Source of the DNA: Nemertoderma westbladi
Taxonomy: Eukaryota; Animalia; Xenacoelomorpha
Direction: 5' to 3'
DNA: 64,000 bases
Assembly: GCA_032718475.1 (NCBI GenBank)
Contig: JAUCBJ010006659.1
Location: 1 to 64,000, forward strand
Part shown: positions 30,644 through 58,734 of the stretch, in pieces
Numbering within the stretch: position 1 is the stretch's first letter
Layout of the letters: each line of letters opens with the position of its first letter
The notes under the pieces: generated by a model
Databases searched by the model: none
The model's input: only the letters and a program-made list of their open reading frames with translations
Told to the model about the DNA's origin: nothing
Position numbers and translations under genes: made by a program

Positions 30644-30712
30644 CTGTTTAGAGTATTTACGTATATTAGAAACTGTGATTTTGTATATTTATAGACTTGA
30701 ATCCCATTTTCT

Positions 30713-30720
30713 GGGAGCGG
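30713..30720 (+). other. B1 polypurine tract GGGAGCGG
   Basis: Immediately precedes LTR2; B2 has GGGAGTGG (59184-59191) and C has GGAGCGG. Confidence 0.75.
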
Positions 30721-36871: not shown

Positions 36872-38900
36872 CAACGTTTGGAGTGGGTGTGTGACCATAT
36901 TATTTTATATTCTTATTATTTTATATTTATGTATGTATTATTATGTAATTTTATTATAATCGTTTTCTTTAATTTTATTTAGTAGAATGTTATTTTAGCG
37001 ATTATTTAGTAGATTAGTGCAATATATATTCGCGTTTATTACTTAATTACTTATATATTATATATTTAGTGCGACGGCGAGAAATAATTCTTTTTCTCTT
37101 TCCTTACTGTCCGTATTACATTACAAATACGTAACTACAGTAAGATGAAATATCCGTACTTATTAAAGTACAATAAAGCTCCTACTATATTTAAGTATTA
37201 TTGGTAAGCAGAGTATTAGGAATGCAAAATTCAGATCCTCGTGTCTCGGCTAAACCAAGCTCTGGGTAGACCTTGGAGATGACTTGCCTCTTCTCACTGA
37301 CATTGCTTCGTGCGATATTGCTCTCATACCATATTTTAAATAATACATATAGTAGCGTGATGTCCCTTTAACAGTAGCGTATAACGCAAAATAAATCTGT
37401 TAAACCCTTTGACCATCTGCAATTCTAGTCGATTAAGATATCGCGGCACCCACCGATATACTTGAAAAACAAAATTCTAGAATCAGTGGTTAACGTCCCC
37501 AGACTTGTTCTGGAATAAACCGGTGCCCATCCTAAATATTAACTATTAATATTTATAAAATCTGTCAAATTTCAGATCCTTTAACATTCTAGTCGATTAA
37601 GATATCGTAGCACTTACCGATACTCTTAAAAAGACAAAATTCCTAGAATCAAGGATCCCAGTCCCCAGACTTGTTCTGGAATAAAATTGTGTCTATTTTA
37701 ATATTAAATAATAAAATTACGGGAATAAATTTAAATTCATCTTTTAATGAATTTGATAAATTGTTATTTTATACAATTTATAATATTTCCAAAATTCCAT
37801 TAATTAATAGATCATGGGAGCGGAGATTCACCTATTAAGTGTATTAGTGTGCGAGAATCTCCAATATAGAGTCAATAGCCGATAAAATTCATAAAATCAT
37901 ATATAAAGATGATATTGACCATTAAAGACTTACTATTAAATAGCATCCCAGATCTGTATGCATGGGAATTACCCTAATTCTACTGCTAGCTTTCCATAAT
38001 GTCACCATAGCAACAACCACGCTAGAATTAGAAGCGAGTTAACAGAACAATAAAAAGCTTGCTCATTGAATAGCATACGGAATAAATAGCACACCGCAAG
38101 TATCCAGGGATACATAATAACAACGTGACATTCTGGAAGGCACTTGACTAACGGACAAATGACCCGAATGTGTGATAGAATGTGTACCATTTGTGACAGT
38201 TACGTGGAATTTGTGCGTTTGTAGGTGAATGTTACTATTAAGGTGTGTTTACAGTAGCGAGTCGCAATTGTGAAAGTAGCCCTAACTCTCCAGTAAGAAC
38301 CTGAAGTATATCTAAGCCTTTGGGACGGACGGTGGAGTGACTCGTGCTGGTTGTTGTAGTCGTTGTGCAGCTACGACGTTGGCGATAGGCACATCGGCGA
38401 AAGTACACCAGCGCTGAGGATCTCGCACTGTCCGGGGGCAGAGAGGGGTAGGCAGCGACGCCCGCTCGCCTAAATATAAACTCATTATAATATGGATAAA
38501 CTTATATAGCAGATATGATTGAGTTGATAGAAGATGATCTTGGTATCAGGGAGCGATATACTCTACCTTTACAAGCGTTTGTTGATAGCTTGATACGCGG
38601 CGACGCTGGTCCAACTACTACGGAGGACGATGGTCGTTATATCTAACCGCCAATGTCCCGGGAGCAACTTGCGCGTGGGTTGGACTGTAGAAAATTCACC
38701 GCTCGCTATACGCATCGTAATGTTACGTATATGGACTTCTTAACTACTGGTCATCCTATCGACCTACACGATACGAACAATATAGACACCAAAAGGGAAA
38801 TGGTTTTATTTAAATATCATACCCAGCGGAAGCGGAACGATAAACTGAGACTCGAACACGAAAATTCTATTCGAAACCGACTCGAAAGTGCAGATGTTGA

Positions 38901-41260
38901 TGTAAGGGTCCAGTAGTATACCGCTTACCAGATCCTAGTAACGATGTATCTTACTATGAGACTCTAGTAATGTATACGGGCTTGTACAGTATCTGACAAC
39001 AAATCCCAGTCCAGGATATCTAAACAAACAGATACAATACACAAACGACTACTGGCGAGGAACAGAGCCTAGTATCTATTCTATGTACGTGAGCGGGTCT
39101 AATGCCTACGTACTAGACAAAAGGATACCTGTCCTCTAACCGGTGAGGCAGATGTACAGTTACAGTAACAGACCAAACTCACGGGAAAACAATCCCCGCG
39201 CAGCGAATCCTAACTATCACTGACAGTCCTAAATACAGTAACTTGCCGCGGTGTGATTTATATGGTTTATATACGAACTAGGTGGTTAACAGACCTAGTG
39301 TAACAATGCTGATTACCCCTGTCTAAATCAGCCTAAAGTCGTGCCTAAATGTAACGATAACTGATCCCCCTGTACGAAATCAGTCTAAAGGGTCAGGCCT
39401 AAATGTAACAATACTGCTGGACAGAAATCAACAGTTTAATAACGAAAGTGAAATACTCCTTATTGCCGCAACTAAATCAGATCCTAATTTTACAAATACA
39501 GATAATTTCTACCTAAAATAATGTATAGTGCGCTATAGCTAGTAGAACTTTAAGGGCAATATGTTTTAGGGCGTGTGTGTGTGGGTGTGTTACAAATAAA
39601 ACAATTTCGTGTAATTCCTTTACTAGGTTTTAGTGATTTTCTGACTAAATGATACCGTGCGCTAGCTACTAAAATAAACTAGTCGCGTTTTGTAGAACTT
39701 TATACTCACGAATGACGTCAAAGCTCTCTCCTTCCTATCCACAACCCAATGGGCAACCACAGTGTTAGTAACTACACCCGTGATCGGCACTAATACCAGA
39801 TTCTGGTTGTAAGATAAGAATAGGGGTTAATCGCTACCGTACGTTAGCTGATCTGGTATACTAATTTAATTCTAGAACTTTGTTGCTGCGGTAGTTAGCA
39901 GCAATACCTATCAGTACGTGGCAAGGCGCGGTAGGATATTAATAAACCTCCCTAGGCCAAGCAGTGTGCCGGTAGCAGAAATGCTCCTTGCCTGATCAAA
40001 TAGCTAACTCCAGACAGGGGGGGGGGGTACTAATGTACGTTCTACAAAGCGAACCGGTACCAAACAGTCAGTGCTACGAATCACTAAATTATGGAACATA
40101 TGCTGTCTGTACCTAATATGTACTCGCGTACTGACAAATGGCAATAGTTCGCACCTGTAGGAAGTACAGGTTAACCCAGGGGTTCGTAGGACTGACAAAA
40201 GGGGGGGGTGTTTCTGTCTGAATATAATTATTTGATCCTAAATTTGCGGCGTCCAGTACGGCGTCACGCTTACCCTGATCTATAGGTCTTACGGCGGGCA
40301 AGGGCGTCGAACAAAGTCTTACCTTCTCACAAAGCGGGCGCTGCATGGCAAGTTGAGTATTTCGAAGGGGGCAAAGGGGGTGCGCGGTCGATCCAATGTG
40401 GGCGCTAGCGTGTTGTGGACATCTCTTCCCTGCGTTGCTTACGGCCTAACGGTCTAGGCTGCCATCTCCCTGATGTTTGGCTGTCCCAAAGTTGGACCAA
40501 AAGAAAACATGTTCAGGAATTTGCAGTATATTTACAGTTTTACAAAGGATTTATCAAATAAAGTTTCAACAAGAAACCAAAATAAACTAATAACAATTTA
40601 GGAATTTACAAGAGTAAGGTGGTGTTATTAGGGAGTTATAAGGTAGTTATAAGGGAGTTATAAGGTAGTTATAAGGTAGTTATAAGGTAGTTATAAGGGA
40701 GTTATAAGGTAGTTATAAGGTAGTTATAAGGTGATAACCGAAGGCAAACCGGCCTTTTTATACTAAATATTGCACATGGAAACTAAACAGAATTTTCCAC
40801 AGCTTCACATTTGAGCAATAAAGTGCTTCGTGCCCTATGATTGGCCCAGCTCATCGTTCAACGCAGTCCGGCCCTTACACTAATCTGGGACATGGAATCC
40901 TAACAGAATTTTCCACTGCCTCACATTTGAGCAATAAGATAATTTATGCCCTATGATTGGCCTGGCTCATCATTCGCTACGTTGTACGCTTCTCATTGGC
41001 CTACCAATTAGCACCAAACGAAAATAAATGGCCCCAAAATACAAATTTCCCGACTGGGATTCGAACTCGTAACCTATGTAATATAACCAACGCCTTAACC
41101 ATCTGACCACTACGCCACGAGAGTACCTAAGGGTTTTATGTGTACAAATATGAATAGGCATATTACATTACTGTAACTAAATCAAAATACGTCGGATTTT
41201 CGAAAGTTTTTACGTTAAAGTTAAACTACAAATGCTATCTTATAGTGAAATAATTCATCA
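38901..41260 (-). repeat. Element C 3' LTR (2360 bp)
   Basis: TGTAAGGGTCC...TAATTCATCA; PPT GGAGCGG (minus) at 41261-41267; contains a (GTTATAAGGTA)n array at ~40625-40735 and a duplicated ~115-bp CCAAT-containing block at 40770-40975. Confidence 0.95.
41048..41116 (-). promoter_or_regulatory. tRNA-derived Pol III internal promoter in C LTR (second copy at 58521-58590)
   Basis: A box TGGTCAGATGG (41099-41109) and B box GAGTTCGAATCC (41057-41068) at tRNA-like spacing; T4 run just downstream; no intact acceptor stem. Confidence 0.65.
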
Positions 41261-41880
41261 CCGCTCCATGAAAACAGTAAGTAAGACTGTTTTCACCAAT
41301 CGAAACATAAAGTATTTACAAACTACTTCTAAATCTACTGGTAGGGCCTAAAATATAAAATATAATCACTATCTAATTATTGCATACTTAATATTGCAGA
41401 TACGGCGTAAATACAATCGATCGTACATACAAATACAAATTTACGAATTAACTTTAGTGCCTAAAATACAAAAAAGGCTTTCGGTTATCAAGGTAAGCAA
41501 ATTAAACAAATCAGAACAAATAAATCAAAACAAATCAAACAAATAAATCAAACTCTTTCGATAAATCTTTATATATTGTAAATATACATAATAAACCTTC
41601 ACCAAATTAAATCAGTCCAAATATAATATAAACATAATGCGCTAATAACTTTCAATAATGTCCTCCTGACGATCTAATAGTTCGTCCTGCTGGTCTGGAT
41701 ATCTTCTCCTGAGCACCAATTGCTAACGGTAGGCTCGCAAGCCTTCCTTTCCATATCTCGCTCCTCCAAACCCAACATTCAAACATAATCCAAATATAAT
41801 GTCCAAATAAAATATCCAAATATAATATCCAAATAAATATCCAAATCGGTAGGCTCGCAAGCCTTCCTTCCACTCGCTTC

Positions 41881-44800
41881 CTATTCCTTCACTGAGCGGG
41901 CTCGTCCACGTCCTCTAGTGCGATTGGGGGGTGGTCGAGGTCGAACTGGGCTCGGACTTCGGCGTCGAGTCGTCGGTGGTTCCAAAACGCTAGGAAAGGG
42001 GACGACGGGAGTTTCGCACATCCGTCGTGCGCTTAATCCTCTAAATCCTCGTCCGATTCCAACTGTCGGCTTAACATCGGACCGAGTTTCTACAACGCTA
42101 GGAGGAAGTCGAAAAGGTAGGACCGTTCCGTCCGTTGACACCTCGCTCTCTGACGTCGTTTGAATCCTAATGGGTTCAGTCAAAGCGTATCCTGTCCCTC
42201 CGCGTGGTTCTCTAGCAAGGGAAACCGTGCCCCGAGTCATCCGGATTTGCGACTTCGATGTCGTCCTCTTGGCGACATTTACTACCTTCTTAATCTCTTG
42301 TCCGGCCTTCTGGGCTTTGAGTATACGAAATTGCTGATCATCCTGTGGGTGACGCGTCTTCTCCGCTAACGGCGTGGCCTTGAAGCCAGTCTCACGCAAA
42401 ACGTCGGTCTCGTCCAGAATGCACGAGGTTACGCGTTTGTGATAAAATGCGCTCCGGTATGCCCAAGCTATCGAATGCCAGGCTCCTCGATTCCGCTGTT
42501 CAACTCGCAGTTTATCGAATTCTCCGGCGGTAATCTTGTTCACCACAGTTTGAAAGTTCCAAGTATTCTTGTTGTCGGGGTGCACTTGTAAGAAATAGTC
42601 CCGCACAACTTTGAATCCACTGTCCAACGGCAATATATCCAATACCTCCAACAATTCATCGTACTGAGGCATAGCCGATACATATCCTTCCTTTGACATT
42701 ATGAGAGGGTTTACGGCCCAAAATCCCAAATGTGCTCTCATAGGGAAGCGGCGTCGCTGCGTCGATACATGCTCGTCTGCTAGGTCCTCCCAATGGTCGA
42801 ATAATTGTCGAACGATTTTGACTGACATGTGCTCATAGGGGACGTCTCTAAGTTGACATTCGGATGCCCTATGGCCCTTAATATTACAATAAGTACACTG
42901 CGCCACGAAACGCCAGCAAGTGTAGAAAGTGTGCGAACGTTGATCCCCGCACCAGTTGCATACTAAATCCGGTAGAGATATGTGCTTCGCTTCGCACTTC
43001 TTTGCGTGATGGCCAGTTGCTCCACATCTGCCACAAATAGTGTTGGCAGGATACCAAACTCGCTCATAGATGAGATCTCCGATGGGGCGAGCGCTACCAT
43101 CCACGTGATAATTCTCATCATCCGGGTCAGTCGGTATGTTCGTCTCCGTAGGTTGTACACAAACCATGGCATCGCTTTTCTCTAACTCGCGTATCTCAGT
43201 TCGCGTCTTCCTCGGAAGGTTCTCCTCTATTTCTATGAGTTGCCGTAACGGTTCGTCTATTAGCGCCAACTCGGTCGGATCCACATCGTCATGATGGGCG
43301 GTAGGCTCACGAGCCTTCCAGGATCCTTCCGGGCGTTCGAATTCCGCGTGGCGTTCCCCGTCATAGGGTACTAACGTTAACATCGACGGTCTGTCGACTA
43401 GACTTCCCGCGTGAGTGAGATAGACGTCCCTGAAAACGCTAAGTCCCGCTCGCGTGAAAACTTCGCAGTGCGCATCGGTGTTATAAAAGGGTTGGAGAAA
43501 TCGTCGGAATACATCGGTATGCGTCCTTCCTCCATCGTAAAAGGTATGTCCTTCGCCAAGACATAACGGGTGTCGCTTTAAGGTTCTGGATACTACGTCC
43601 GCGATGAAACAAACGTTAACCGAAGATTCTATCGCTAAATAGTATTGTAAGATTATCCGCGGAGGAGAAGTAATCGCCCAATACACGCAACCTCGCCACT
43701 TCAACTGTGACTCGAACTCGTTTACGCCGGGGGTATCTCCCTCTCCGTATACGTCCGTGTATTTGTTCCTCTTACTCTCCTTGTAATCCCAACTGAACAT
43801 TAGATATGAGATATAACCCGTTCCAGTTTTTAGCGTGTTATACTCCCTAAAGTATCCTTGCTCAATAGCCCAAAGCAACAATGGTCTATTATCCACGTAT
43901 GGCGTAGGCAATCGGTCCTCTTCCGTGGGCATCCCTGCAAAGTCGCTAATGAGGTCATCCCGTACACCGGATCCGATCTTGACGATGCTCTTATCCAACA
44001 CAACGTCTCGCACGGCCTTTGGCAACATCCTAGCTTCTATGCTACAAGCCAGGTCCATGGATTTAACTATCCGTTTTATCATCGCGTGTCTTTGCGTCGT
44101 TCCTTCCGGCATAGGCATCTTCCTATCACTCCTCTGTCGGCTGAAGACATGTAACACGCCATCTGGTGCTCTAATCTGTATAGTCTTTGAAGTGAGGCTT
44201 TGCTGATGGCTTCCTCCCTCATTATCGTAAAACATATATCCATTCTCTTTCAGAGATCGGCTAGTCACGTCCCAATCGTCGAGTAAATCGTCGGTAGGTT
44301 TCCAAATTCTCCCGATCGACTTTTCGTCATCGAAACTAATAGGTTTACCGGTCCAATTGGTCGCGATATCGGTGTCGGTCTCAAACGTCCCAACTCCGAT
44401 CCATAATCGAATCGTTTTCGTCAGATATCCTCGCAAGATACAAGGTGCGATATCCGTCCCCGCGCGATCCACTTCCTTAAAGTCCGTGATATGTGGAGGC
44501 ACGTTGCGTACGATTTTTTGAACTATTACTTTACACAACTCGGTTGATTCTAACACATCACCGAAGGTAACCGATGGGAGGAAATCCAGGTTCGAGATGA
44601 TCTCCGGGTGTTCAACTATAGGGATCTCGTAAGTTGTCTCCTTCCGGGTCGGTATACTAATAGGAAAACTAGTTGGTCTCGCAACCGGTACTATCGCTCT
44701 AGTAGAATGGGGCTGAGGTTCTCGCGTCATCTCGACATGAGGTATCTGTAGTCTCTGCGACAAACGCTGAGCAAAGGTGATACTATCGAAGAGCTCGGGT

Positions 44801-45636
44801 GTCATCTCCTTGGGTTCGGTTTGATCGTGGGATATCCAATAGAATGGTAGGCTCGCGAGCCTTCCGCCGAACTCCTCGATCTCGCCTTTCTCATACGCCT
44901 TGTACGCCCTGTAGAAGCTCAAAGCTTCCCGTTTCTCTTGTGTCGACTTATTAGACTCGTCCACTACCATGCTGTAGACGTCTGGTTCGACTAATTTAGG
45001 TTCGTAAATAACGATCTCACCCGCGTTCGGTCCACTCATTTTAAATGAATGATACGGATTTGTCAAAGGGTATCCGCCTTCTTGGTAACGTAGACTTTGG
45101 TGGTGTGAATATCGCGCTAATATCGGCTCGGGGTTCTCCGAGTTCAACCGCATAGGAATCGCGTTGTCTTGCTCGCGCATACACGCTCCACATTTATAAA
45201 ACAGTTTGTATACGGAAAACGCGTCCTTGGTCTCTGGATCCGCTCCTCGAGCGCGTCTATAAAGATGCATTCCTTCAAATTCGTCTCTAGCTGCAGGTAA
45301 GGGTTCGTTTACCGTCAAATATTGCAGCGTATGATACAATCGGCGTATTTCGGTGTCTGGATCCTCGCAAATGTCGCTAGCGTCGCATAACGCATCGTAG
45401 GGATATAACGCATTGTATTCCGCGCGTAATTCCTCCGTTCTTTTGTTGTATGCGTCCAACCGCTGTCGCGTAACATTTGGGTCCGCCTTGGATTTAGCGA
45501 GCTTGGCCGTACTCCTAGCCATACTCTCCACTCCAAACACACTAAAGTTTTTAGCTCCATAACGATTGAATGGCGCCTGGTGCTCTTGTTCTTGCGTAAA
45601 CCCTTGACGTAACTCTTTATACATCTTCTCCGCCAT
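41881..45636 (-). CDS. Element C ORF3 (1251 aa): DEDDy/WRN-like 3'-5' exonuclease domain + three CCHC-type zinc knuckles + basic C-terminus
   Basis: ISFDDE (ExoI), TIQIR, LPKAVRDVVLDKSIVKIGSGVRDDL (ExoII), W...LQYYLAIE (ExoIII-like); CGRCGATGHHAKKC, CNWCGDQRSHTFYTC, CTYCNIKGHRASEC; uninterrupted ORF. Confidence 0.8.
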   Translation of the reverse strand: MAEKMYKELRQGFTQEQEHQAPFNRYGAKNFSVFGVESMARSTAKLAKSKADPNVTRQRLDAYNKRTEELRAEYNALYPYDALCDASDICEDPDTEIRRLYHTLQYLTVNEPLPAARDEFEGMHLYRRARGADPETKDAFSVYKLFYKCGACMREQDNAIPMRLNSENPEPILARYSHHQSLRYQEGGYPLTNPYHSFKMSGPNAGEIVIYEPKLVEPDVYSMVVDESNKSTQEKREALSFYRAYKAYEKGEIEEFGGRLASLPFYWISHDQTEPKEMTPELFDSITFAQRLSQRLQIPHVEMTREPQPHSTRAIVPVARPTSFPISIPTRKETTYEIPIVEHPEIISNLDFLPSVTFGDVLESTELCKVIVQKIVRNVPPHITDFKEVDRAGTDIAPCILRGYLTKTIRLWIGVGTFETDTDIATNWTGKPISFDDEKSIGRIWKPTDDLLDDWDVTSRSLKENGYMFYDNEGGSHQQSLTSKTIQIRAPDGVLHVFSRQRSDRKMPMPEGTTQRHAMIKRIVKSMDLACSIEARMLPKAVRDVVLDKSIVKIGSGVRDDLISDFAGMPTEEDRLPTPYVDNRPLLLWAIEQGYFREYNTLKTGTGYISYLMFSWDYKESKRNKYTDVYGEGDTPGVNEFESQLKWRGCVYWAITSPPRIILQYYLAIESSVNVCFIADVVSRTLKRHPLCLGEGHTFYDGGRTHTDVFRRFLQPFYNTDAHCEVFTRAGLSVFRDVYLTHAGSLVDRPSMLTLVPYDGERHAEFERPEGSWKAREPTAHHDDVDPTELALIDEPLRQLIEIEENLPRKTRTEIRELEKSDAMVCVQPTETNIPTDPDDENYHVDGSARPIGDLIYERVWYPANTICGRCGATGHHAKKCEAKHISLPDLVCNWCGDQRSHTFYTCWRFVAQCTYCNIKGHRASECQLRDVPYEHMSVKIVRQLFDHWEDLADEHVSTQRRRFPMRAHLGFWAVNPLIMSKEGYVSAMPQYDELLEVLDILPLDSGFKVVRDYFLQVHPDNKNTWNFQTVVNKITAGEFDKLRVEQRNRGAWHSIAWAYRSAFYHKRVTSCILDETDVLRETGFKATPLAEKTRHPQDDQQFRILKAQKAGQEIKKVVNVAKRTTSKSQIRMTRGTVSLAREPRGGTGYALTEPIRIQTTSESEVSTDGTVLPFRLPPSVVETRSDVKPTVGIGRGFRGLSARRMCETPVVPFPSVLEPPTTRRRSPSPVRPRPPPNRTRGRGRARSVKE

Positions 45637-46368
45637 CGTATACGAATATATGCGGTTACATATCGTTACGTTTCTACTAGATGAAGCACAAAATAGAGGT
45701 TAGATGTGAGGTGACTTAGAGTTTGTCGGCTTTTGGCTCAACTCTGCTCTAAACCCCAACCCATTTTGCCTAATGATTTCGGGTTCGCGTGATTTCGCAC
45801 TGGCTCCTAATCCAAAAATGTGCCGATAAAAAACGAATTCCGGGTAAACTAGCCGCGAGTCTAAAATACTCACCTTTTAATTTCCCAAACTACGTTTCCC
45901 AAGAAAAATAATGCAGTCGAGAATTAATTGGTCTAAATAATAGTAGACACGACTACGTAGAACAAGGCCGATTTTCTTTTTCCAAAAAAATTTATCGGTA
46001 GGCTCGCAAGCCTTCCATCCGCTCTTGTCCTCCCCAATTTTAATTTTTATCTAGCTGTATTCTAGAATTTGCTTTCACTGGAGAATCGTTTTTCTTAAAT
46101 TTAAATCCAAATAAATGGATTTGTCTAATAATTTTTGAAAAATGTCTCACTTGTGGGTTCCAAGTGGAATTCCATTCCTACTGTACACACAATCCCGCTC
46201 CTATGTGATACATAAGGGTACTACCCTCCATGTTCACGTATAAAGACAATGGAATTCCACCGCTGTCTCTATCTACAGTGAAGAGGATTACAAATGCACG
46301 TACAGTAATACAAATACAAATAACTAAAATACAGTAGGTCTATGTGGCGGCCGACAAAGGTCCCACAT

Positions 46369-49300
46369 CTATTTACTAATATTGGGTGGAGATTTGTAGT
46401 CTCCCGTCTCGTTTCTAGTCTCCTCAAGGAGTACGAGACGTTGTACAGGCCTATCTACGGTACGTCCGTCGATAGTCCGTACAGTAACTGTCCTCACTAC
46501 ACCAGATGTAGGGTGCGTGGTCAAAATGACTCCAGTCAGCCAAAACCGTCTTTTCAGATTGGCTTCAGCCAATAAAACATGGTCACCACGTCTTAAACTT
46601 CGGGTATTTAGATACCAAGAGGTTCTGGTCGAAATAGAGGGCAAATAATATTTCTGCCATATTTCCCAGAATTTATTTGCAAGCAATTGAGTGATTTTCC
46701 AAGCCTTGTTGCCGTATCCGTCACTATCAACGGGTACCGAAATGGGCAACAATGTCGTCGGCGCCTGCATAAGCAGGTGCGCTGGTGTCAAGGCAAACTG
46801 TACGTCGTTATTGTCTGGGATCAAAGCGATCGGTCTGGTATTTAAGATTGCTTCGATTTCTATTAGTAACGTCGTCAGTTGGTCGTCTGTCAAGATGTGT
46901 TGCGTCGGTACGACTTTAGCCATAGCTGTCTTTATTGAGCCAATCAGCCTTTCCCAAATGCCGCCTCTCCACGGACTGTCTGGAGTATTGAAAAACCAAA
47001 CAATACGGTGAGGACGTAGTTCCTCGGAATTCTGGTTTTGGTCCAATTTTCTCAAAGCTCTGGTTATCTCGTTCCGTGCACCCACAAAGTTTGTCCCTTG
47101 GTCGCAGTATATGGATTTGACCAATCCACGTCTAGCGATAAATCGCCGTAAGGCTAGGATAAAGGCATTGGTGGTCAAGTCTGTCACTCGCTCTATATGG
47201 ACAGCTCTGCTGGCCATGCAAGTGAAGATCAATCCCCAACTTTTTACCTGTACCCTTCCGCGTTTCGCGATTATGGGTCCAAAACAGTCTATCCCTGTCT
47301 CAGTGAAAGGGGGTCTAAACGCCTGTAATCTAGCTAATGGTAGTTCACTCATTTCTTGGTGTCCTATCCTCGCGTGCACCTTCTTACAAATAATACAGTT
47401 CCGTGTTACCGAACTCAGTGCCTTACTAGGTCTAATCAGTACAAACCTCGAACGTAAGTGTGATAGACAGTGGTGTCTACCTACGTGTTTGAGTTGTACG
47501 TGTGCGTCCAGTATCATAGCGCGCTGTAATTCATGGTGTTGCGGTATGATGATAGGATACCTAAAGTCAAGTGCAAAGTCGATGTTTTGGAGTCTGGACT
47601 TGTGACAAAGTAAGCCCCGGTAAATAATCGGACTCCAACTCAAAATCGGTGAAGACTTAATCTGTTTAACTTGTTTGATCGCTGTGAATTCGCGTGCGAA
47701 ATATCGCAATTGATAATGTCTAATGATATCAACTTCACAGTGGCCAATTTCCTTTAAGGTAAGTCTTCTAGGAAAGTCGCGTTTGCCTCTGGCATATTGT
47801 CTCAATCGTTTGAGCCATGCTAACTTGCGGCATGCGTCAGTCCATGATCTAGTTAGGTTCACTATCCTGTCAACGTAAGTGTTAGTGACGTCATCGGGTA
47901 AGGTGTAGTCGTAGTGTGGATACTTGTCTGGACTTGGTAGGCCCACGGGCCTTCCGGTAGGTTTGTCTGAGTCCCCAAGTACGTCAATCTCTATGGTCTT
48001 ACCTTTGCCGTCCGCACCTAATGTGTCGACTGGCAGTAATGGTTTCAACTCTACAGTGTCAGTGTGTTCCTGTGAGCCTGTAAGCTTCCTAACCTTAGTC
48101 ACACGTTTACCTGTAGGTAAGTCAAGTACCTTCTTCGAGCGGAGTGTAATCCCTGTGGCCACACCTCTGTCGTCCAAAGAAGTCAAATTCGGTAAATCTC
48201 TAAAAGTCCGCTCCAATGGGTCTTCTAATGGAGTGTCTAGTAGACAGTCTGGTGAAGCGTCTGGTGAACAGTCTGGTGAGACGTCTGGTGAGACATAGCG
48301 CGGAACATCCGGCGAAATGTCCTGTCGTCGGTCCCAAAGTCTGTCTAGCGTAACTTCTGTCAGAAAGTCTGGTTCAAAGTCTGGTCTAAAGTCTGGTGGA
48401 CAGTCTGTCGAGATGTCTGGTGGAAAGTCTGGTGAGACGTCCGGTAGACATTCTGTCGAGAGTTCCATCAAACAATCTGGCGAATAATCCGGAGAACAAT
48501 CTGGTGTCGCTTCTGGTGAATAGTCTGGCGAGTAATCTGGTGAACGATCCGGCGAAACGTCTGGTGAAATCTCCCACGGAACATCCGGCGAAGGATTCGT
48601 ACAAGCGTCTGGTCGAGTGTCTGGCGAGACGTCTGGCGTAATGTCAGGTCTGGCGTCCAGGTCATCAGATTTCGTCCGTCCTTTTTTCCTCTTGACCTTG
48701 GCGTTGGCTTTCGCTTTAGACTTGACAACCTTGTCGAGTTTTATCTCGGCACCCTCTGGTATGGTGTTGGTTGTCGCGTCGAATAACGGTGGCCATTCGT
48801 CTGATGGTCGCTGTAGGAAATCGGGTCCTCTAAACCAAAAGGATTTATTGTCCGGTTTACAAAAGTCAAGTGGTTGCATCCCCCGTGACGCGATGTCAGC
48901 TGGGTTCAGCTTCCCTGGACAGTGACGCCAATCTTGTTTGAGCGACCGGTCTAATATTTCAGCCCGTCTGTTGGCTACGAAAGTCTTGAACTCGAATGTT
49001 TCGTTGTTTATGTACCAAAGTACCAACGTCGCATCCGTCCAATATGTGACCTTCAAGTTAGCCTCCAGCTCGCGTTGAACTAGACTGACAATATCGGTGG
49101 ATATCGTGCCGGCTTGCAGCTCCCCACGAGGTACAGTCATATACTTCAATGGCATTGTTCTAGCCCTTGAAGTAACGAGAGATACATCGTAGCTGTCCGA
49201 TGTCACTTGTCGTCTAAGGTATAAAGTAACCCCCAATCCATCCTTGCTAGCGTCACTAAAGCTGTGAAGCTCTAAATCGGCAGGAAAGGTGGTTTGCAAA

Positions 49301-50637
49301 GGAAAGTATACCCTTGGTATGGTATAGTCTTGTAGGAACGTCAGTTGGGCTTCCCAGTCCCTCCATCGCTCAGCTAACTTTTCTGGGATGGGATTGTCCC
49401 ATTCCAGTCCGGCTTGCCAAATGCTGCGGAGTATGATCCTAGCATGTAGGATCACTGGACTAATGAAACACAATGGGTCATACAATCGACTCATGGTCGA
49501 TAAGCAAGTCCTCTTAGTGAGAGGTCTAGTCTGGTCGTTGGACCTTACACGTACCCTAAAATTGTCGGTGTTAGGGTCCCAACTAAGTCCTAATACTTTG
49601 GTCGTCGGCAGAGGTTCTAGGTCTAAGTCCAAGTCACCTCCACTGCGATCCATCGGGTCAAATGAGTTCACCAGTTCGGGTTCGTTGGAAGCGAACTTCG
49701 TCAGGTGAAATCCGCCCTCAGCGAGACAATCCTGGAGTTGGTGTGCTACGGTTGTAGCGCGCTCCAAGGTGTCACAACTCTTGAGGCCGTCATCCACGTA
49801 GAAGTCTCGTTCCACGGTCCGAACTACTTCAAGGTCAAATTGGTCTCGTCTGTCCAATGCTGTCTGCTTCAATGCGTACATGGTGCAGTTGGGGCTGTCC
49901 CTGGCTCCGAATACTCTTACCTGCATTTGGTAAGTTTCTGGCGGAAGTTGTAAGTTTCCGTCCGGATACCAAAGAAACCTTAAACTGTCCCTGTCCCGCT
50001 CCAAAGCCTTAACCTGGTGAAACATGGCCTCTACGTCACAGGTGAAAGCCACTTTGCGTTGTCTAAAACGCATTAGGACTCCCATGAGGTAATTATTCAT
50101 ATTCGGCCCGTCCATCAGTTCGCTGTTCATAGACATCCCTTGGTAAAGCGCAGCGCAGTCGTTGACTACACGCACCTTGCCAGGTTTGTCCGGGTGTCGA
50201 ACAAAATGATGTGGCAGGTAATATGTCTGGTCTATGGTTACCTCGGGATTTAACATCCTAATGGCGTATCCCTTTTGGAGATACGTCTGAAGTTGTGCAT
50301 TGTATTGCATATGGGCCATCTCGTCTCGCAACAATCGCTGCCTTATTGATTTGAGTCGCCTCAAAGCAAGCGGGTAATTGTTAACGAGTTTAGGTTGTCC
50401 ATTGCGCCACAACATACCAACCTCATAGTGGCCATTCGCGGTCTGGCGAATGGTATCTCTCATAATATTTAATGACCGTTTTTCCTGTTCTGACATAGCG
50501 GTCTCGTAACTACCGGGTTCTGCTGAGTCCTGTTCCAACCATTGTATGGTCCGTTCAGTCAGCAGTCGGTCAAGCGCTGCTTGCACTGCGCCATGGTCCT
50601 CGTCCACGTCTTCGTCCGCTGCGGTGGCTAGTGTCAA
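46369..50637 (-). CDS. pol: Element C RT-RNase H-integrase (1422 aa), with a PDxS repeat linker
   Basis: YYLPHH, CDVEAMFHQV, YVDD, LHSFSDAS, GIDCFGP, YCDQGTNF, GGIWERL. Confidence 0.95.
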   Translation of the reverse strand: MTLATAADEDVDEDHGAVQAALDRLLTERTIQWLEQDSAEPGSYETAMSEQEKRSLNIMRDTIRQTANGHYEVGMLWRNGQPKLVNNYPLALRRLKSIRQRLLRDEMAHMQYNAQLQTYLQKGYAIRMLNPEVTIDQTYYLPHHFVRHPDKPGKVRVVNDCAALYQGMSMNSELMDGPNMNNYLMGVLMRFRQRKVAFTCDVEAMFHQVKALERDRDSLRFLWYPDGNLQLPPETYQMQVRVFGARDSPNCTMYALKQTALDRRDQFDLEVVRTVERDFYVDDGLKSCDTLERATTVAHQLQDCLAEGGFHLTKFASNEPELVNSFDPMDRSGGDLDLDLEPLPTTKVLGLSWDPNTDNFRVRVRSNDQTRPLTKRTCLSTMSRLYDPLCFISPVILHARIILRSIWQAGLEWDNPIPEKLAERWRDWEAQLTFLQDYTIPRVYFPLQTTFPADLELHSFSDASKDGLGVTLYLRRQVTSDSYDVSLVTSRARTMPLKYMTVPRGELQAGTISTDIVSLVQRELEANLKVTYWTDATLVLWYINNETFEFKTFVANRRAEILDRSLKQDWRHCPGKLNPADIASRGMQPLDFCKPDNKSFWFRGPDFLQRPSDEWPPLFDATTNTIPEGAEIKLDKVVKSKAKANAKVKRKKGRTKSDDLDARPDITPDVSPDTRPDACTNPSPDVPWEISPDVSPDRSPDYSPDYSPEATPDCSPDYSPDCLMELSTECLPDVSPDFPPDISTDCPPDFRPDFEPDFLTEVTLDRLWDRRQDISPDVPRYVSPDVSPDCSPDASPDCLLDTPLEDPLERTFRDLPNLTSLDDRGVATGITLRSKKVLDLPTGKRVTKVRKLTGSQEHTDTVELKPLLPVDTLGADGKGKTIEIDVLGDSDKPTGRPVGLPSPDKYPHYDYTLPDDVTNTYVDRIVNLTRSWTDACRKLAWLKRLRQYARGKRDFPRRLTLKEIGHCEVDIIRHYQLRYFAREFTAIKQVKQIKSSPILSWSPIIYRGLLCHKSRLQNIDFALDFRYPIIIPQHHELQRAMILDAHVQLKHVGRHHCLSHLRSRFVLIRPSKALSSVTRNCIICKKVHARIGHQEMSELPLARLQAFRPPFTETGIDCFGPIIAKRGRVQVKSWGLIFTCMASRAVHIERVTDLTTNAFILALRRFIARRGLVKSIYCDQGTNFVGARNEITRALRKLDQNQNSEELRPHRIVWFFNTPDSPWRGGIWERLIGSIKTAMAKVVPTQHILTDDQLTTLLIEIEAILNTRPIALIPDNNDVQFALTPAHLLMQAPTTLLPISVPVDSDGYGNKAWKITQLLANKFWEIWQKYYLPSISTRTSWYLNTRSLRRGDHVLLAEANLKRRFWLTGVILTTHPTSGVVRTVTVRTIDGRTVDRPVQRLVLLEETRNETGDYKSPPNISK

Positions 50638-53600
50638 TGCGTCTGGTAGGCTCGCAAGCCTTCCGGTGTCACTAACGGCGTCGAATTGTCGTGCGGCGGT
50701 TTGACAACTTCTTGATCTATCGGTAGGCTCGCAAGCCTTCCAAGATCAACGACCGGTGTCGAAGCCTGGTGGGTGGGGTCAATGACCTTCGGATTTTTCG
50801 GTAGGCTCGCAAGCCTTCCAAAATCCTCGTTCATCGAGTCATCCACGGCAACAACCCTTTGGTCTTCAGTAGTCAATACAACCTGGTCTACTGCAAGTAG
50901 TTGTAAGTCAGAGGTCCGTATGGTCGTGTCCAGATCGGTTACGTCAGTATCGGTGGCGTCTGCGTTAGTGACGCAAGTCTGTCGTAGTGCCGTCCGTACA
51001 ATTGGACCACAGGAGTGTGAAGGAGAATTATCTATCGTGTTAGTCAATAAACTACACGTACTCAAAACGTCGTCCTCCTGGTCACTTACCTCTAGTGAAC
51101 GTATTGGTGCTCTAGTATACCAACCTATGGGAGTTCTACATGCGTAGGGGTTGCCGCTGTAATAACAGATGGGCGTGTCTCCCATACCTGATGTAAGTTA
51201 AACTGGTCTGTCCCAATTAACATCGCAATGGAACGATAATTAACAGGACATTCCGGTATTCCAAGGTGTCAGAAATACTTACGATCTTCCGGTGATTGCT
51301 CTGGCACAGGGCCAAGCAAGTTACTAAAGTCCTTCGTAGCTGCAAAGGTCAAATTTCTTACCGGAAGTAATGAGCGCTCCTCCTTGCTGTGTTCCGCTTT
51401 GGAAAGAAGAGTGTCTAAAGTTAGTTTTACTCTCGTCACAGGTATCGCTCTCTTACCATGCATGCTGCTTACAGTATACTGAGCAGTCTTACCTTGACTC
51501 ATGTCCGTAACTACGTCGGCTACTTGTTCGTCGACATAACTATGCGATGACGCAGAGTCTAGGATGGCGTATATACGCTTGCTCCCTCGGGTTCCGGTAA
51601 TCTTTATAGGAATCACGCTAAACCCTTTCAGTTGGTTCTGTGTGAGGAGCGTTATCGATGGCTGTTCCTCACCTGCATGCACGTAAAAGGTGTCGTCTTC
51701 CTCCTCGTCCTCGTCCGATGATCCTGACTGATCCATACAGTCGGTATAAAAGGTACGGATCTCGCGCGGCGCACGCTCCTTATAAAGCGCGTCGCATCTA
51801 GCCGCTTTATCTGGATGCTCTCGTCGAAAGCGTCTGGTCGGAGTATGACTGGTTGTGTGAAGCAACGTGTCATGGTTACGTCCACACAGAGAACATGTAT
51901 CATCGCTCGGGCAATCCTTCCGGACGTGTCCTGGCTTCATACATCTCCAACAGGAATCTAGAGATCGGATTTGGAGTCTCCTCTCCTCGATCCCTAACTC
52001 TTTAAAAGCGCGACATCCACGTAGTTTATGTCCGCCTTGGTTTCTGCCGTTCCGCTTGCAGTATGAGCATCCCACAAAGCCCGCCGGCAACTGTTGTCGT
52101 GGCTGCGTGGTGCCGATAGGCGTCAGAACTTTAGAAGTCTCAGTAGGTGTGGCGTAAGTAATGGCTTTCGCGTTCGTCGGAAATGGTTTAGTCCGATTCG
52201 GCGCAGAAACAGGTATCCCTTCCGCCGCGATATGGTGATCGGTATAGTTCGATCGAGTCTCGATCACGGCCTCCCGTGAAATCAGTTGATAGACATCGGT
52301 GAGTTTTAATAACCCTCCGGCCTCGTCGCGCTGGTACTCGATGCGTCGCCATTCTCTTCGTAGTCGATGGTGAAGTCGACCAATTATTCGAATGAGAACC
52401 ATCGGTGCGTTAGCGTACTCGAGTTGTCCAATGGACCGTAAAGTCCCTATAGCGTTCTTTATTTCGTCCGCGAGTCGTAAAAGGTCGATCGGTCTCGAAA
52501 TGTTGCCTCCTCTGCAGGGGTCTTCGATAATGGATTTAGCCATGGCGACATTACCGCCGTAAATTGAATACAAACGGTCGTATGCCAACTCAAAGGCATC
52601 GGGAACACCAATAAAGGTTTCCGCTAATCGTTTCAGCTCACCAGACAGGACTTGGAGCAAGTAATTAAACTTCTCCGTCGAGGTGAAAGCACACTTAGCG
52701 ATCTGGGACTCTACGTAGTCTACCAGTGTGCGCCAGTGTTTCGCGTTGCCAGAGAACTTCGGCGGTTGCTGTGCCGGTAATCCGTGTCTAGCCGCGAATT
52801 TCGCAATCTCGCTAACCAAATCCAACTGTCCGCATCCCTGTTCGGCGGCGTCGTCCAGTCGCTCCCTTCCGCGCGTTGTTCGTCGGTAGGAATTATTAAC
52901 GGGATCTTCTTCTCGATGTGTCGGAGTCCGTCTAGTCTCCTGTTCTCTCCTCGGTGGTCGATGTTGTCTAGGTTGTTCCAACTCCACGCTGGTTCGTGAT
53001 CGATCCGACGGTTGCGCTTCGAGTCGCTCTTCTATCTGAGCTAGTCGGTCCGCTACAGGTCGCATTATTTCGGCGAGTCTGTTGGTGCTGATCGCTTCCG
53101 CTGGTTGCAACATGGGTTTCTGTTGGGGTGTTTCTCGTGGAGGATTGTCGATATAGGGGTTCGTCGATCGTTCCTCTCGTTTATAATCTTCCGCCGCTCC
53201 AGTACGGAATATTTCCCGTTCCGTCGACTCCGAGTCACTAGATGAGTCGCTGTTGTCCGGATAAGGTGGCTGGCGGGTTCGTGTCCGGCGTATTATTCTT
53301 GGTCTCGTCCGTTGTGGTCCGGAATCTACGGCTCTCCGTTGTTCGGTAGGCTCGCAAGCCTTCCACGAAGTCGTAGGTCTCGCTATACGTTGTCCGATCC
53401 CGTGGGTACTATCCACATCCATCCTCCTCCGTAGTTCGGTAGGCTCGCAAGCCTTCCACGAAGTCGTAGGTTGCGTCGAACATTGTGTCAACGGTCGAGT
53501 GAAATAGTCGGGTTTCGTAGTCGGTCTGTAAATAACTGGATTTGCACAGCACGTCACAGGTTTAACTTGTAATGGTTTACTCACCTGTTTAATGGTCATA

Positions 53601-55258
53601 AATGCAGGTTCCTCTCTTCCTACAAGTAGACTACGACTTACTGTAGGTGGACTAGTTACGTTACCTGCTAAAATTGGCGATGAAGTCGCCCTAGGTTGCG
53701 GTATTTCTGTCACAACAAACCTGTTGCCTTGCGTCGAACGCACAGGCGTTATTTCCTTAGGTTTCGTAACGAAGACCGGTTTCATCGGAGTCGTGGGTTT
53801 GAGCATAGGAATAACTTGGGGAAAACGTTTACAGTAATCCTCGACGAACTCCTCTCCTCGATCTATCGCTCCCACACTTCCTTCCTCGATCCGCTTCTGT
53901 ATTCCGCGATATCGAGCTTCCATACGATCCAGGGCAGACAAGTCGTGTCCAGTTCGCGATCTTATAGATCTATCTCTCGCGTCGAGTTCGAGGTCCGCTT
54001 GCGCGTTCGCTGTCTCGCGCGATCTACGATTCAATTCGAACTGTAGTTGCATCTCCCTTTCACGTCGATCCGCTACTTGTTGTTGTGCCGCTAACTCCGC
54101 TTCCTGTATAGCTAAACGTGCGTTTATTTGTCGCGCCTCCAACTTAGCGCGAGCGTCGGATGCTGCTTTCTTCCGTGCTAATTCGTCGGCTGCCGTCTGT
54201 CGTGCTAACTCGTCCGCTGCTGCTGCCGCGGCCGCTTCTTGCGCTAAGTTTTCCTCTAGTCTGCGCATTTCCGAAGCTTCGAATTCGGCTTGCGCCTTGA
54301 GTTGCGCAATTCTTGCCTCGTCCTCTCTATGTTGTTTCTCTCCCTCGATGGCGATCTGTGCCATCTGGTGTTGCGCTTCTTCCTCGGCGACTTGTTGTCG
54401 GAGTGCAACCTCCTGTTGTTGTCGAGTAATTCCAGACGCTGTTCTACTAACGTCGCCAACGTCGCCAACGTCGCTCCGTATGCTAACGAACGATCTATCC
54501 AGTGGTGGATGTTGGTAGGCTCGCGAGCCTTCCGTAGTGAGACCTTCCGTCGTCCCTCGCGGTTCGACTTCCGGTTCGTCGATCGGTACGCCGCATCTAC
54601 GAAGAAAATTGGTCAGCGTTTCCAACCTTCCGTCCAGGCAGTAGAGTTCTTCTTCCTCTTCGGGTTGTAACAACGCGTCCGAAACTGACTCACCTAGCAG
54701 TTGGTCAAACTGCTCCTGTTGAGCCAATCTTATTACTGACTTAAACTGGATAATGCTTTCTCTCGCACTTACTAATTTATCTACTATCTTTACCTGAGTA
54801 AAGTTGTCGCCACGCAACTCTGCAAGTTCGTGCAAACCTTTAAGTTTATCTACGGAGGCATGTATCCTACTTTCTATTCTTACCTGTAAGGTGTAGAACT
54901 CGTATCTCGACATCGGGGCGGTTAACTCGCGTAAAACGCGAAAACCTTCTCCGAGGTTCCGAGTAATCTGGGCCATGTGTCCTCCTATACTTCTAATAAC
55001 GTTCTCCTGGCTTCCAGTCGAACTTACCATGTCCGGTTCCCGTGATCTAGTCTGCGGGACGGTAAGGAAATCTTCGATTCTGCCGTCGCCACGCGTTGCG
55101 GCTTCCGGTATTTCCGTTCGGGGTACCGGCGACGCAAGCGGTGTGACATCGGTGGAATCTCGGGTTCTCCTTCTTGGTTCGTCTATTGTCGATCTGTCCG
55201 GGTCGCACGAGTCATAGTCGGTAGGTGGGTATCTCGTCGAATGGGGTGTGTCACTCAT
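50634..55258 (-). pseudogene. gag: Element C gag + protease (1329-aa ORF 51269-55258, TGA at 51269, then frameshifts near 51180 and 50670)
   Basis: PKFSGNAKHW DUF1759-like region; knuckles CSYC..H..C, CWRCMKPGHVRKDC, CSLCGRNHDTLLH; ILDSAS; MLIGTD follows the stop in frame. Confidence 0.9.
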
Positions 55259-56210
55259 GTCTTATTATATACGTCAAGTACGGGTAATAAAATGTCAAAG
55301 TGTCTGAATGTTGAAGTGTCAAACTTACCTTGGTATATGTAGTACATATATACCCTAACCGGTACAAATAAATCAACAAGTCAGAATGTCGAAATGTCAA
55401 AATGTCGAAATGTACAAATGTCAAACTTACCTTGATATATATATATATCATATATATACCCTAACCGGTACAAATAAAACTAACAAGGTATATAATAAAA
55501 TAAGTAGTAATCTAGCCTACCGGCTAAATTTGTACGAATAAATGAGATAACGGTATACGTTAACAAAATATAGATCAACAAGTACAAACAATAGGCCAAA
55601 CAGCAACGTCTAACGGGAAAATAAGTACCAACAACACTACTAATAGACAGTGAAACCAACAAATTTTGAGTACTACTGTGCTTTCTTAAGTTTGAACGAC
55701 GCGAGTCGTAAAACTTATGTTCCTTTGATCTTCCAGTCGTACAAATTCCCAAATACAAACCGGACGTGGGTCTTTCCGTTTTTCGGCGGCGCGGACGATT
55801 TTATTGTCTCCCAAACTTTGCGAAAAGCGGTCTAATCCTCGAAGCGGTCCAGAAATGAGTCCTTGAGTCCTGAAAAGGTCGAAGGTGAGAGTTTTACTTC
55901 TACGCTTACGAAAATCTTCCTAGGTACCGATACAAATTGGTCTTTAAACCCTATGTACCTTTTCAAGTACCGAAAAGTAACACCGCACACACACGGCGTA
56001 AAACAAAGTGCTACAAACTAACTGTTAGCTAGTCAAATATTAAATACGAAAGTACTAGCTACCCTAAAAGCCTACTGAAGCAGGGGACGTTCTAAATTAC
56101 TAAAATTACTAACCTTAAATTTTAAATATCTCCTACTTTCAATAGCTAACAATATTTATCTATATCTCACTTTAAATGCGCACGCACTTTCAGTTAAGAT
56201 ATTTAATAAA

Positions 56211-56373
56211 TACTTCCTACTGTAAGGGTAGGAATATTTTACACTACGATAGAAGTACTATACACTAATTTCAGAATTTGTATAATATACTTCCTACTGT
56301 AAGGTAGGAATATTTTACACTACGATAGAAGTACTATACACTAATTTCAGAATTTGTATAATATACTTCCTAC
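56211..56373 (-). repeat. 76-77-bp tandem repeat reiterating the C LTR end + PBS; non-tRNA PBS GTAGGAAGTA at 56364-56373
   Basis: TACTTCCTAC-TGTAAGG occurs at 56211, 56288 and 56364. Confidence 0.85.
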
Positions 56374-58734
56374 TGTAAGGGTCCAGTAGTATACCGCTTA
56401 CCAGATCCTAGTAACGATGTATCTTACTATGAGACTCTAGTAATGTATACGGGCTTGTACAGTATCTGACAACAAATCCCAGTCCAGGATATCTAAACAA
56501 ACAGATACAATACACAAACGACTACTGGCGAGGAACAGAGCCTAGTATCTATTCTATGTACGTGAGCGGGTCTAATGCCTACGTACTAGACAAAAGGATA
56601 CCTGTCCTCTAACCGGTGAGGCAGATGTACAGTTACAGTAACAGACCAAACTCACGGGAAAACAATCCCCGCGCAGCGAATCCTAACTATCACTGACAGT
56701 CCTAAATACAGTAACTTGCCGCAGTGTGATTTATATGGTTTATATACGAACTAGGTGGTTAACAGACCTAGTGTAACAATGCTGATTACCCCTGTCTAAA
56801 TCAGCCTAAAGTCGTGCCTAAATGTAACGATAACTGATCCCCCTGTACGAAATCAGTCTAAAGGGTCAGGCCTAAATGTAACAATACTGCTGGACAGAAA
56901 TCAACAGTTTAATAACGAAAGTGAAATACTCCTTATTGCCGCAACTAAATCAGATCCTAATTTTACAAATACAGATAATTTCTACCTAAAATAATGTATA
57001 GTGCGCTATAGCTAGTAGAACTTTAAGGGCAATATGTTTTAGGGCGTGTGTGTGTGGGTGTGTTACAAATAAAACAATTTCGTGTAATTCCTTTACTAGG
57101 TTTTAGTGATTTTCTGACTAAATGATACCGTGCGCTAGCTACTAAAATAAACTAGTCGCGTTTTGTAGAACTTTATACTCACGAATGACGTCAAAGCTCT
57201 CTCCTTCCTATCCACAACCCAATGGGCAACCACAGTGTTAGTAACTACACCCGTGATCGGCACTAATACCAGATTCTGGTTGTAAGATAAGAATAGGGGT
57301 TAATCGCTACCGTACGTTAGCTGATCTGGTATACTAATTTAATTCTAGAACTTTGTTGCTGCGGTAGTTAGCAGCAATACCTATCAGTACGTGGCAAGGC
57401 GCGGTAGGATATTAATAAACCTCCCTAGGCCAAGCAGTGTGCCGGTAGCAGAAATGCTCCTTGCCTGATCAAATAGCTAACTCCAGACAGGGGGGGGGGG
57501 GTACTAATGTACGTTCTACAAAGCGAACCGGTACCAAACAGTCAGTGCTACGAATCACTAAATTATGGAACATATGCTGTCTGTACCTAATATGTACTCG
57601 CGTACTGACGAATGGCAATAGTTCGCACCTGTAGGAAGTACAGGTTAACCCAGGGGTTCGTAGGACTGACAAAAGGGGGCTGTGTTTCTGTCTGAATATA
57701 ATTATTTGATCCTAAATTTGCGGCGTCCAGTACGGCGTCACGCTTACCCTGATCTATAGGTCTTACGGCGGGCAAGGGCGTCGAACAAAGTCTTACCTTC
57801 TCACAAAGCGGGCGCTGCATGGCAAGTTGAGTATTTCGAAGGGGGCAAAGGGGGTGCGCGGTCGATCCAATGTGGGCGCTAGCGTGTTGTGGACATCTCT
57901 TCCCTGCGTTGCTTACGGCCTAACGGTCTAGGCTGCCATCTCCCTGATGTTTGGCTGTCCCAAAGTTGGACCAAAAGAAAACATGTTCAGGAATTTGCAG
58001 TATATTTACAGTTTTACAAAGGATTTATCAAATAAAGTTTCAACAAGAAACCAAAATAAACTAATAACAATTTAGGAATTTACAAGAGTAAGGTGGTGTT
58101 ATTAGGGAGTTATAAGGTAGTTATAAGGGAGTTATAAGGTAGTTATAAGGTAGTTATAAGGTAGTTATAAGGGAGTTATAAGGTAGTTATAAGGTAGTTA
58201 TAAGGTGATAACCGAAGGCAAACCGGCCTTTTTATACTAAATATTGCACATGGAAACTAAACAGAATTTTCCACAGCTTCACATTTGAGCAATAAAGTGC
58301 TTCGTGCCCTATGATTGGCCCAGCTCATCGTTCAACGCAGTCCGGCCCTTACACTAATCTGGGACATGGAATCCTAACAGAATTTTCCACTGCCTCACAT
58401 TTGAGCAATAAGATAATTTATGCCCTATGATTGGCCTGGCTCATCATTCGCTACGTTGTACGCTTCTCATTGGCCTACCAATTAGCACCAAACGAAAATA
58501 AATGGCCCCAAAATACAAATTTCCCGACTGGGATTCGAACTCGTAACCTATGTAATGTAACCAACGCCTTAACCATCTGACCACTACGCCACGAGAGTAC
58601 CTAAGGGTTTTATGTGTACAAATATGAATAGGCATATTACATTACTGTAACTCAATCAAAATACGTCGGATTTTCGAAAGTTTTTACGTTAAAGTTAAAC
58701 TACAAATGCTATCTTATAGTGAAATAATTCATCA
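56374..58734 (-). repeat. Element C 5' LTR (2361 bp)
   Basis: Only a handful of differences from 38901-41260 seen by eye. Confidence 0.95.

Follow-up and report, generated by a model that had tools for sequence, protein, structure and literature searches.

A predicted DEDDy exonuclease-like third open reading frame with zinc knuckles, and a dispersed predicted RNA hairpin, in a BEL/Pao retrotransposon of Nemertoderma westbladi

Among BEL/Pao elements, which are bounded by long terminal repeats (LTRs), the position of a third open reading frame (ORF3) is usually occupied by a viral coat (env-like) gene. DEDDy-type ORF3s are known from the bdelloid LTR retrotransposons Juno and Vesta and from Terminons, with the tetrad DEED and, as far as the available text goes, untested activity (PMC5408684, PMC5718144). 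Described in 2017, they have neither a demonstrated activity nor a demonstrated substrate in that text, which judges swapping among retroelements likelier than capture from a host (Rodriguez, Kenefick, Arkhipova 2017, PMC5408684). A comparable build is found in the trypanosome RNase D (TbRND), where a DEDD domain is followed by four C-terminal CCHC fingers, which contact the RNA at a distance of 5-9 bases from its 3' end, a combination termed very unusual in the accessible part of its paper (PMC7797062). Here we describe an ORF3 that combines both features in a window of 64 kb (contig JAUCBJ010006659.1, positions 1 to 64,000, of the Nemertoderma westbladi assembly GCA_032718475.1), which is a nest of BEL/Pao retrotransposons. 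The gene is intact, encodes 1251 amino acids (aa) and lies on the minus strand at 41881..45636, between pol (46369-50745) and the 3' LTR (38901-41260) of a 19.8-kb element (element A); an earlier note made from the DNA letters had described an intact 1251-aa ORF between pol and the 3' LTR. Residues ~428-690 (43567..44355, minus strand) very probably adopt a DEDDy fold of the WRN/EXD2/RNase D type, judging from ordered-motif tests and the ESM Atlas.

The earlier note had read the DEDDy likeness by eye; its quoted motifs are all present where it placed them, and the likeness itself is supported by ordered-motif tests and the ESM Atlas though not by local hidden Markov model (HMM) searches. For the ordered-block test a profile of 60 WRN/EXD2-like domains was divided into blocks chosen independently of the query. 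ORF3 scores 30.5 (shuffles: mean 1.1, maximum 25.5, 0/400 reaching its score) and ranks first among the 10 ORFs of at least 300 aa in the window, with PolA exonucleases as controls at 35-39; most of the score comes from the ExoII block, the only one that is individually strong. Glocal alignment to two profiles gave z values of 3.1 and 5.0 (0/300 shuffles each). In one alignment (A3) residues D471, E473, Q487, K553, D561, G607, K622 and W653 fall on invariant columns, and the motifs follow one another in the expected order. Within the ESM Atlas, PF01612 clusters rank first for the domain (0.91) and account for 24/30 and 29/30 matches in two queries, which count as one source.

Several results weigh against this assignment. 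The domain stays below the curated Pfam cut-off of PF01612 and has no significant Pfam match, is unmatched among PDB sequences, and reaches a probability of 0.3% with hhalign. From a set of 60 bacterial PF01612 domains, neither the separate local HMMs of its 31 NrnC-like, 10 PolA and 19 RNase D and WRN-like members nor the one of the whole set ranked ORF3 above shuffles, for which the insertions in its domain may be the reason. In the ESM Atlas a value of at least 0.9 is also reached by 4-10% of shuffled proteins, and the 159 shared features fall short of the 170 typical for members of the same family. A single-sequence AlphaFold prediction was unusable (pLDDT 33), and an alignment-based model is modest (pLDDT 58, pTM 0.55). 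The latter was built with RNase D/NrnC sequences, so that its structure matches are partly circular: Foldseek places EXD2 first (E 1.5e-3) and VIA returns DEDDy proteins throughout (Z 8-10). The profile and structure check proposed in the earlier note is divided, with hhalign and the single-sequence model failing and the aligned model matching EXD2.

In a set of 5.8 billion proteins, none of 3,549 candidates was homologous to residues 380-960 (lengths 688-2190 only) and none of 714 to the domain (lengths 175-559 only); among 1.84 billion representative proteins the single match is confined to the knuckles. Metagenome contigs yielded no homologue (0/35 pattern matches), nor did phages. A quick tree leaves the domain on a branch of 8.3 changes per column, and consequently no donor can be named. 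The phylogeny that the earlier note had called for thus could not place the domain, and of its idea of a captured RNA-processing or RNA-binding effector, what is supported is a third ORF that is not env, bears a DEDDy-type domain plus knuckles, handles nucleic acid and is kept by selection; capture from a host is not established.

For the active site we arrive at a partly different assignment. The earlier note took SFDDE (D436-x-E438, 44323-44331) as ExoI, which is probably wrong: the D-x-E motif is more likely D471-x-E473 (YDNE, 44218..44226, minus strand). In the 96 MAFFT runs containing both candidates, D471 falls on the first catalytic Asp 66 times and D436 twice, and the distance to the TIQIR strand is 16 residues for D471, as is usual, against 51 for D436. 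With ExoI at D471, the W-x-G-P strand found ahead of the domain in WRN-like proteins has its counterpart in the stretch NWTGKPISF. ExoII stands as proposed, with D561 (43954..43956) in KIGSGVRDD, the strongest block at 26.6 bits. The candidate ExoIII is Y666-x-x-x-E670 (43627..43641, minus strand), with Glu replacing the last catalytic Asp; its spacing is plausible, but the register varies among alignments, and 0 of 120 MAFFT runs place E670 on the last Asp (the adjacent S671 is chosen 16 times and V651 or D634 in most others). We lean slightly towards a predicted metal site of D471, E473, D561 and E670. Against it, ExoI has two candidates, glocal alignment with cheap insertions picks SFDDE under both profiles, and the last acid is either Glu (E670) or absent, which leaves the catalytic activity of ORF3 in doubt.

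Downstream of the domain, three CCHC-type zinc knuckles occupy residues 868-927 (42856..43035; zf-CCHC E 2.3e-4 on the excised piece), followed by a domain shared with the ORF3 of a neighbouring element, element B (42535..42855; residues 890-1034, 26% identity, E 5e-14), and by an Arg/Pro-rich tail (41884..42066) with ~23% Arg across the last ~60 residues; knuckles and Arg-rich tail had both been recognized in the earlier note. Near the N-terminus, residues 89-154 (45175..45372) are in common with the short ORF3s of elements B and C (38% identity, E 4e-6). The best 19-residue hydropathy window reaches 1.48 and coincides with the putative ExoIII helix, and the N-terminus is hydrophilic by eye (no signal-peptide predictor was applied), in agreement with the reported lack of an evident signal peptide or transmembrane segment. 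An env or glycoprotein identity was ruled out, there being no membrane-spanning stretch and no glycoprotein family in Pfam, and the view of ORF3 as not env-like holds.

Like the third ORF of the rotifer elements, ORF3 follows pol, is not env, lacks a transmembrane part and is predicted to have an RNase D-like DEDDy domain with an altered tetrad; going by the available text (PMC5408684), Juno and Vesta are of Ty3/gypsy type with the motif DEED, whereas ORF3 belongs to a BEL/Pao element, appears changed at the last acid and is a 1251-aa protein with three knuckles. Since DEDDy ORF3s in LTR retrotransposons were already published there, the surprise of finding one is lowered. With TbRND it shares the order of a DEDD exonuclease and tandem CCHC fingers (PDB 7C42/7C45), a likeness of architecture only and not of orthology, and TbRND is recovered in the VIA fold search (Z 8.4, root-mean-square deviation 4.0, 157 aligned). 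As described in the accessible part of PMC7797062, TbRND is a mitochondrial cellular enzyme with four fingers, a 28-residue linker and four canonical acids, whereas ORF3 has three knuckles ~180 residues downstream of the exonuclease, plus large extra domains. The local motif that matches best (KIGSGVRDD to KxGVGIxxD) is that of WRN and EXD2, which also head the Foldseek matches, but identity is 15-18%, two insertions of ~35 and ~25 residues interrupt the domain, and the last acid is altered. ORF3 thus extends non-env ORF3s with a predicted enzyme to BEL/Pao and shows the exonuclease-plus-knuckles build of TbRND in a mobile element. In the titles, abstract openings and openly accessible passages covered by the literature searches, we found neither an exonuclease ORF3 nor dispersed hairpins reported for a BEL/Pao element, and the word 'exonuclease' is absent from the available text of a BEL/Pao survey (PMC3118150).

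The protein is kept by selection, as judged from differences among copies. Over 43270-44900, 29 of the 40 listed differences are synonymous against 22-32% expected (p <=1e-7), in line with the comparison of copies (dN/dS) that the earlier note had suggested making; a caution is that these 40 are the best supported of 353 and not a random draw. Within residues 430-690, covering the exonuclease domain, 16/23 listed differences are synonymous; E473 has a synonymous difference only, and none is listed at D471, D561, Y666 or E670. In a wider comparison of copies, 12/15 listed ORF3 differences are at third codon positions. At residue 583 (43888-43890), beside YVD, a non-synonymous change sets the present copy apart from nearly all others compared. 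The element A family is abundant in organism A: the contig pieces that match its internal region number 19,983 in one DNA run (X1) and 9,246 in another, and runs X1, X3 and X4 cover 30/30 bins of that region, the ORF3 bins included. A deletion form that skips 42011-45074, and with it exonuclease and knuckles, is present in contigs of runs X3 and X4.

Expression of ORF3 might involve splicing. A splice-acceptor-like site (branch motif, 11/14 pyrimidines, AG; predicted only) lies at 45677..45711 on the minus strand, 41 nucleotides (nt) upstream of the ATG, and suggests that ORF3 is made from a spliced message. Set against this, the splice predictions are weak: donor-like AG/GTAAG occurs nine times in element A, and 22 of the 101 YAG in the LTR are acceptor-like. 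Run X5 (RNA by guess, organism B) gave no cover over 43257-45252, which is uninformative either way.

The second feature of element A, absent from the earlier note, is a 20-nt sequence that occurs 12 times in the element and nowhere else in the window. Eleven of the 12 sites have at most 3 mismatches (0.01 expected) and the twelfth has 4. All 12 fold into the same predicted hairpin of modest stability (z -0.85 to -3.5). When the hairpin is described by structure only (2 bp, an A-A mismatch, 5 bp and a 4-nt loop), the 64 kb contain exactly 12 sites, each of them on the sense strand of element A. From 5' to 3' on the minus strand, the copies are located in gag (54514..54533, at residues 243-250; 53438..53457; 53345..53364), in the linker between protease and reverse transcriptase (RT; 50800..50819, 50722..50741 and 50645..50664), in the linker between RNase H and integrase (47936..47955, with one stem pair changed on both sides), between pol and ORF3 (45997..46016), in ORF3 (44846..44865, residues 258-264, and 43300..43319, residues 773-779), directly 3' of the ORF3 stop (41848..41867) and in the 3' untranslated region (41728..41747). 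Nine of them fall within coding sequence, where every one of the three frames is used, and none overlaps a recognised domain. Variation is limited to the loop and to the one stem pair that is altered on both sides.

A tandem-repeat artefact was ruled out, as the flanks differ and three frames are used. Viral contigs contain no match to the pattern. Four single matches in metagenome contigs were treated as chance: none of their loci resembles gag or pol, and a search of the four gave a single weak likeness to ORF3 (E 0.002). Elements B to E of the window carry no dispersed repeat of this kind. Because the copies occupy one strand, any frame and linker positions, they fit an RNA tag that would be read by a protein. 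Less favourable are the single compensatory pair, which is not significant (128/500 shuffles), and a synonymous variant (place 44860) in ~1/4-1/2 of the depth that breaks the stem of the ninth copy.

The priming of element A, likewise absent from the earlier note, is unusual as well. No TGG is present within 260 nt after the 5' LTR. Instead, the first 12 nt at the primer-binding-site position (56362..56373, minus strand) pair with the element's own LTR: the first 10 bases past the LTR match LTR bases 1095-1104 in perfect Watson-Crick pairing, extended to 12 with one G-U pair (bases 1093-1104, at 57631..57642 on the minus strand; the copy in the 3' LTR is at 40157-40168). Among the internal 10-mers of the element only 25/15,102 have such an LTR complement, 3 of them primer-site repeats, and 3/1,000 shuffled LTRs supply one for the primer site. 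The LTR end plus primer site is present three times at ~76-nt spacing (56194-56380), and a fold-back covering the primer site is possible in each complete unit. A comparable arrangement is the self-priming of Tf1/Tj1, where, in the available text of PMC4600332, the complementarity between primer site and own LTR runs as far as the LTR boundary, as it does here; those elements are Ty3/gypsy and their primer is the RNA 5' end, whereas the segment in element A is at LTR base 1093-1104. An AG follows this segment, whose resemblance to an intron 3' end leaves room for a primer that would be a trimmed intron. Against that possibility, the complementary bases take part in closing a small local hairpin as well, and the LTR has many acceptor-like sites (the 22/101 YAG given above). 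Family B is also without a transfer RNA (tRNA) primer site; its site (17005-17016, nearly palindromic) has an own-LTR complement of 12 bases in one LTR and of 10 in the other two, with complements at 16225 and 31144.

With hairpins and primer site in view, the reading that we favour, though tentatively and by analogy, is that ORF3 is an RNA-gripping 3'-end trimmer acting on the RNA of element A itself. On the model of trypanosome RNase D, the knuckles together with the basic tail would keep hold of the RNA while the exonuclease pocket would remove unpaired 3' bases and stop on reaching duplex; the 12 hairpins would mark element A RNA as the target, and one possible product of trimming would be the 3' end of a self-made primer. 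The hairpins and the non-tRNA primer site lend circumstantial support to action on the element's own RNA, which is in this respect the part of the earlier note's list of possible functions that gains. Also in favour, element B has neither the exonuclease part nor a dispersed repeat. On the other side, what ties the hairpins to ORF3 comes from two families of a single window, and the hairpins could instead bind Gag or a host protein. Moreover, family B combines a self-complementary primer site with the lack of an exonuclease, so that such priming does not need an ORF3 in general. A fuller version, in which ORF3 reads the 12 hairpin tags and trims LTR-derived RNA to the duplex to make a tRNA-free primer (maybe an excised intron trimmed by two bases), so forming a closed RNA-processing system, we regard as quite unlikely. 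If ORF3 does make the primer or read the hairpins, this would be a new step in the replication of LTR elements. Element A supplies two defined candidate substrates, the 20-nt hairpin and the primer duplex, on which binding and trimming are directly testable in vitro.

Egalitarian, which in Drosophila binds transposon RNAs and acts in their transport, offers the analogy for a different role. Its DEDDy domain is used on RNA stem-loops and, going by the accessible part of the study, does so with dispensable catalytic residues, full selectivity possibly requiring several RNA elements (10.1101/2025.08.03.668247). By this analogy the ORF3 domain would be a non-cutting RNA clamp, and hairpin binding would route or protect element RNA (germ-line transport, export, packaging). 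The altered or missing last acid and the 12 same-strand hairpins are in line with such a clamp. However, three of the four acids are present, E473 is retained through a synonymous change, and Egalitarian comes no higher than 24th (Z 7.9) among the fold-search matches; it is furthermore a host dynein adaptor that has no knuckles and binds stems far longer than the 7-bp hairpin. We consider a clamp rather unlikely.

Nibbler/Mut-7 and EXD1, host members of the DEDDy fold, act on PIWI-interacting RNAs (piRNAs), including their trimming. It might thus be argued that ORF3 counters silencing by trimming or sequestering host piRNAs directed against the element, the more so as both proteins are in the fold list and the family is very abundant (the 19,983 pieces of run X1). 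This would leave the hairpins unexplained, though, and in the available text of PMC5408684 the rotifer DEDDy ORF3s do not clearly track copy number; we hold it to be unlikely. As the nearest folds include those of WRN, EXD2 and polymerase exonuclease domains and element A is twice the usual BEL/Pao size (PMC8742986), ORF3 could also be an exonuclease acting on DNA, in the proofreading or end-trimming of the complementary DNA of this unusually long 19.8-kb element. CCHC knuckles and an Arg-rich tail would seem better suited to RNA, and a separate ORF would need a route into the particle, which makes this role very unlikely. Finally, a chance DEDDy likeness in a domain of different fold and function is highly improbable: standard profile searches were all blank and only the ExoII block is individually strong, but ordered-motif tests and the language-model search, independently of each other, indicate one family at one position, with the motifs in the right order.

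Element A itself extends from 58734 to 38901 on the minus strand, with a 5' LTR of 2361 bp (56374..58734, TG...CA) and a 3' LTR (38901..41260) that is 99.7% identical to it. The insertion appears young, given that the LTRs differ at only 7 places over ~2,361 bp, are bounded by TG...CA and are flanked by a 5-bp target-site duplication (38896..38900 on the plus strand; right copy 58735-58739). The gag frame (51269..55261, minus strand; DUF1759, zinc knuckles) includes the start of the protease and ends at a stop in this copy, the protease end and linker (50634..51197) are in a different frame, and pol (46369..50745) encodes RT, RNase H and integrase (Pfam domains; Peptidase_A17 E 1.3e-39, DUF5641 E 2.1e-18). 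In this copy gag-pol is disrupted by a stop near 51270 and by frame changes near 51150 and 50675. Within pol, a 12-bp tandem repeat at 48212-48592 encodes a Pro/Asp/Ser-rich linker from RNase H to integrase.

By TG...CA LTRs with a target-site duplication, and by gag (DUF1759, knuckles) followed by protease, RT, RNase H and integrase with Peptidase_A17 and DUF5641, element A is BEL/Pao; judged by the missing TGG over 260 nt, it has no 18-nt primer site matching a host tRNA 3' end. It is therefore BEL/Pao by its predicted proteins and atypical in priming. The Belpaoviridae profile of the ICTV (PMC8742986) gives a usual size of 4.2-10 kb, LTRs of 0.2-1.2 kb and tRNA priming; element A shares LTRs, gag, the order of the pol domains and the Pao-type Pfam domains with it and differs in its 19.8 kb, its 2.4-kb LTRs, the lack of a tRNA primer site and the non-env third ORF. 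Near the start of both LTRs (58520-58600 and 41045-41125, minus strand) a stretch resembling a tRNA, including motifs like the A-box and B-box, was called by neither ARAGORN nor Rfam; it is possibly a remnant of a short interspersed element or tRNA, or an RNA polymerase III promoter. Rfam gave 0 matches in 38800-58800 and ARAGORN 0 tRNA genes.

Element B is located on the plus strand at ~15790-31930, and its pol is ~40% identical to that of element A. Its ORF3 (29036-30643) is short and frameshifted, with N-terminal motif, knuckles and basic tail and no exonuclease: the N-terminal motif and knuckle region are shared with element A, and the ~700 residues between them are missing. The module was therefore either gained by A or lost by B. 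Element A is itself inserted into the ORF3 of another family-B copy (flanks 38500-38900 and 58735-58961). The LTRs of element B (15792-16300 and 30717-31228) match only over the last ~700 bp, and the first part of the 5' LTR matches an LTR at 59189 instead, which suggests a recombinant or nested origin. Elsewhere in the window, satellite arrays occupy 3150-7900 (~68-nt units in a ~2.08-kb higher-order repeat) and 8920-9740 (18-nt units).

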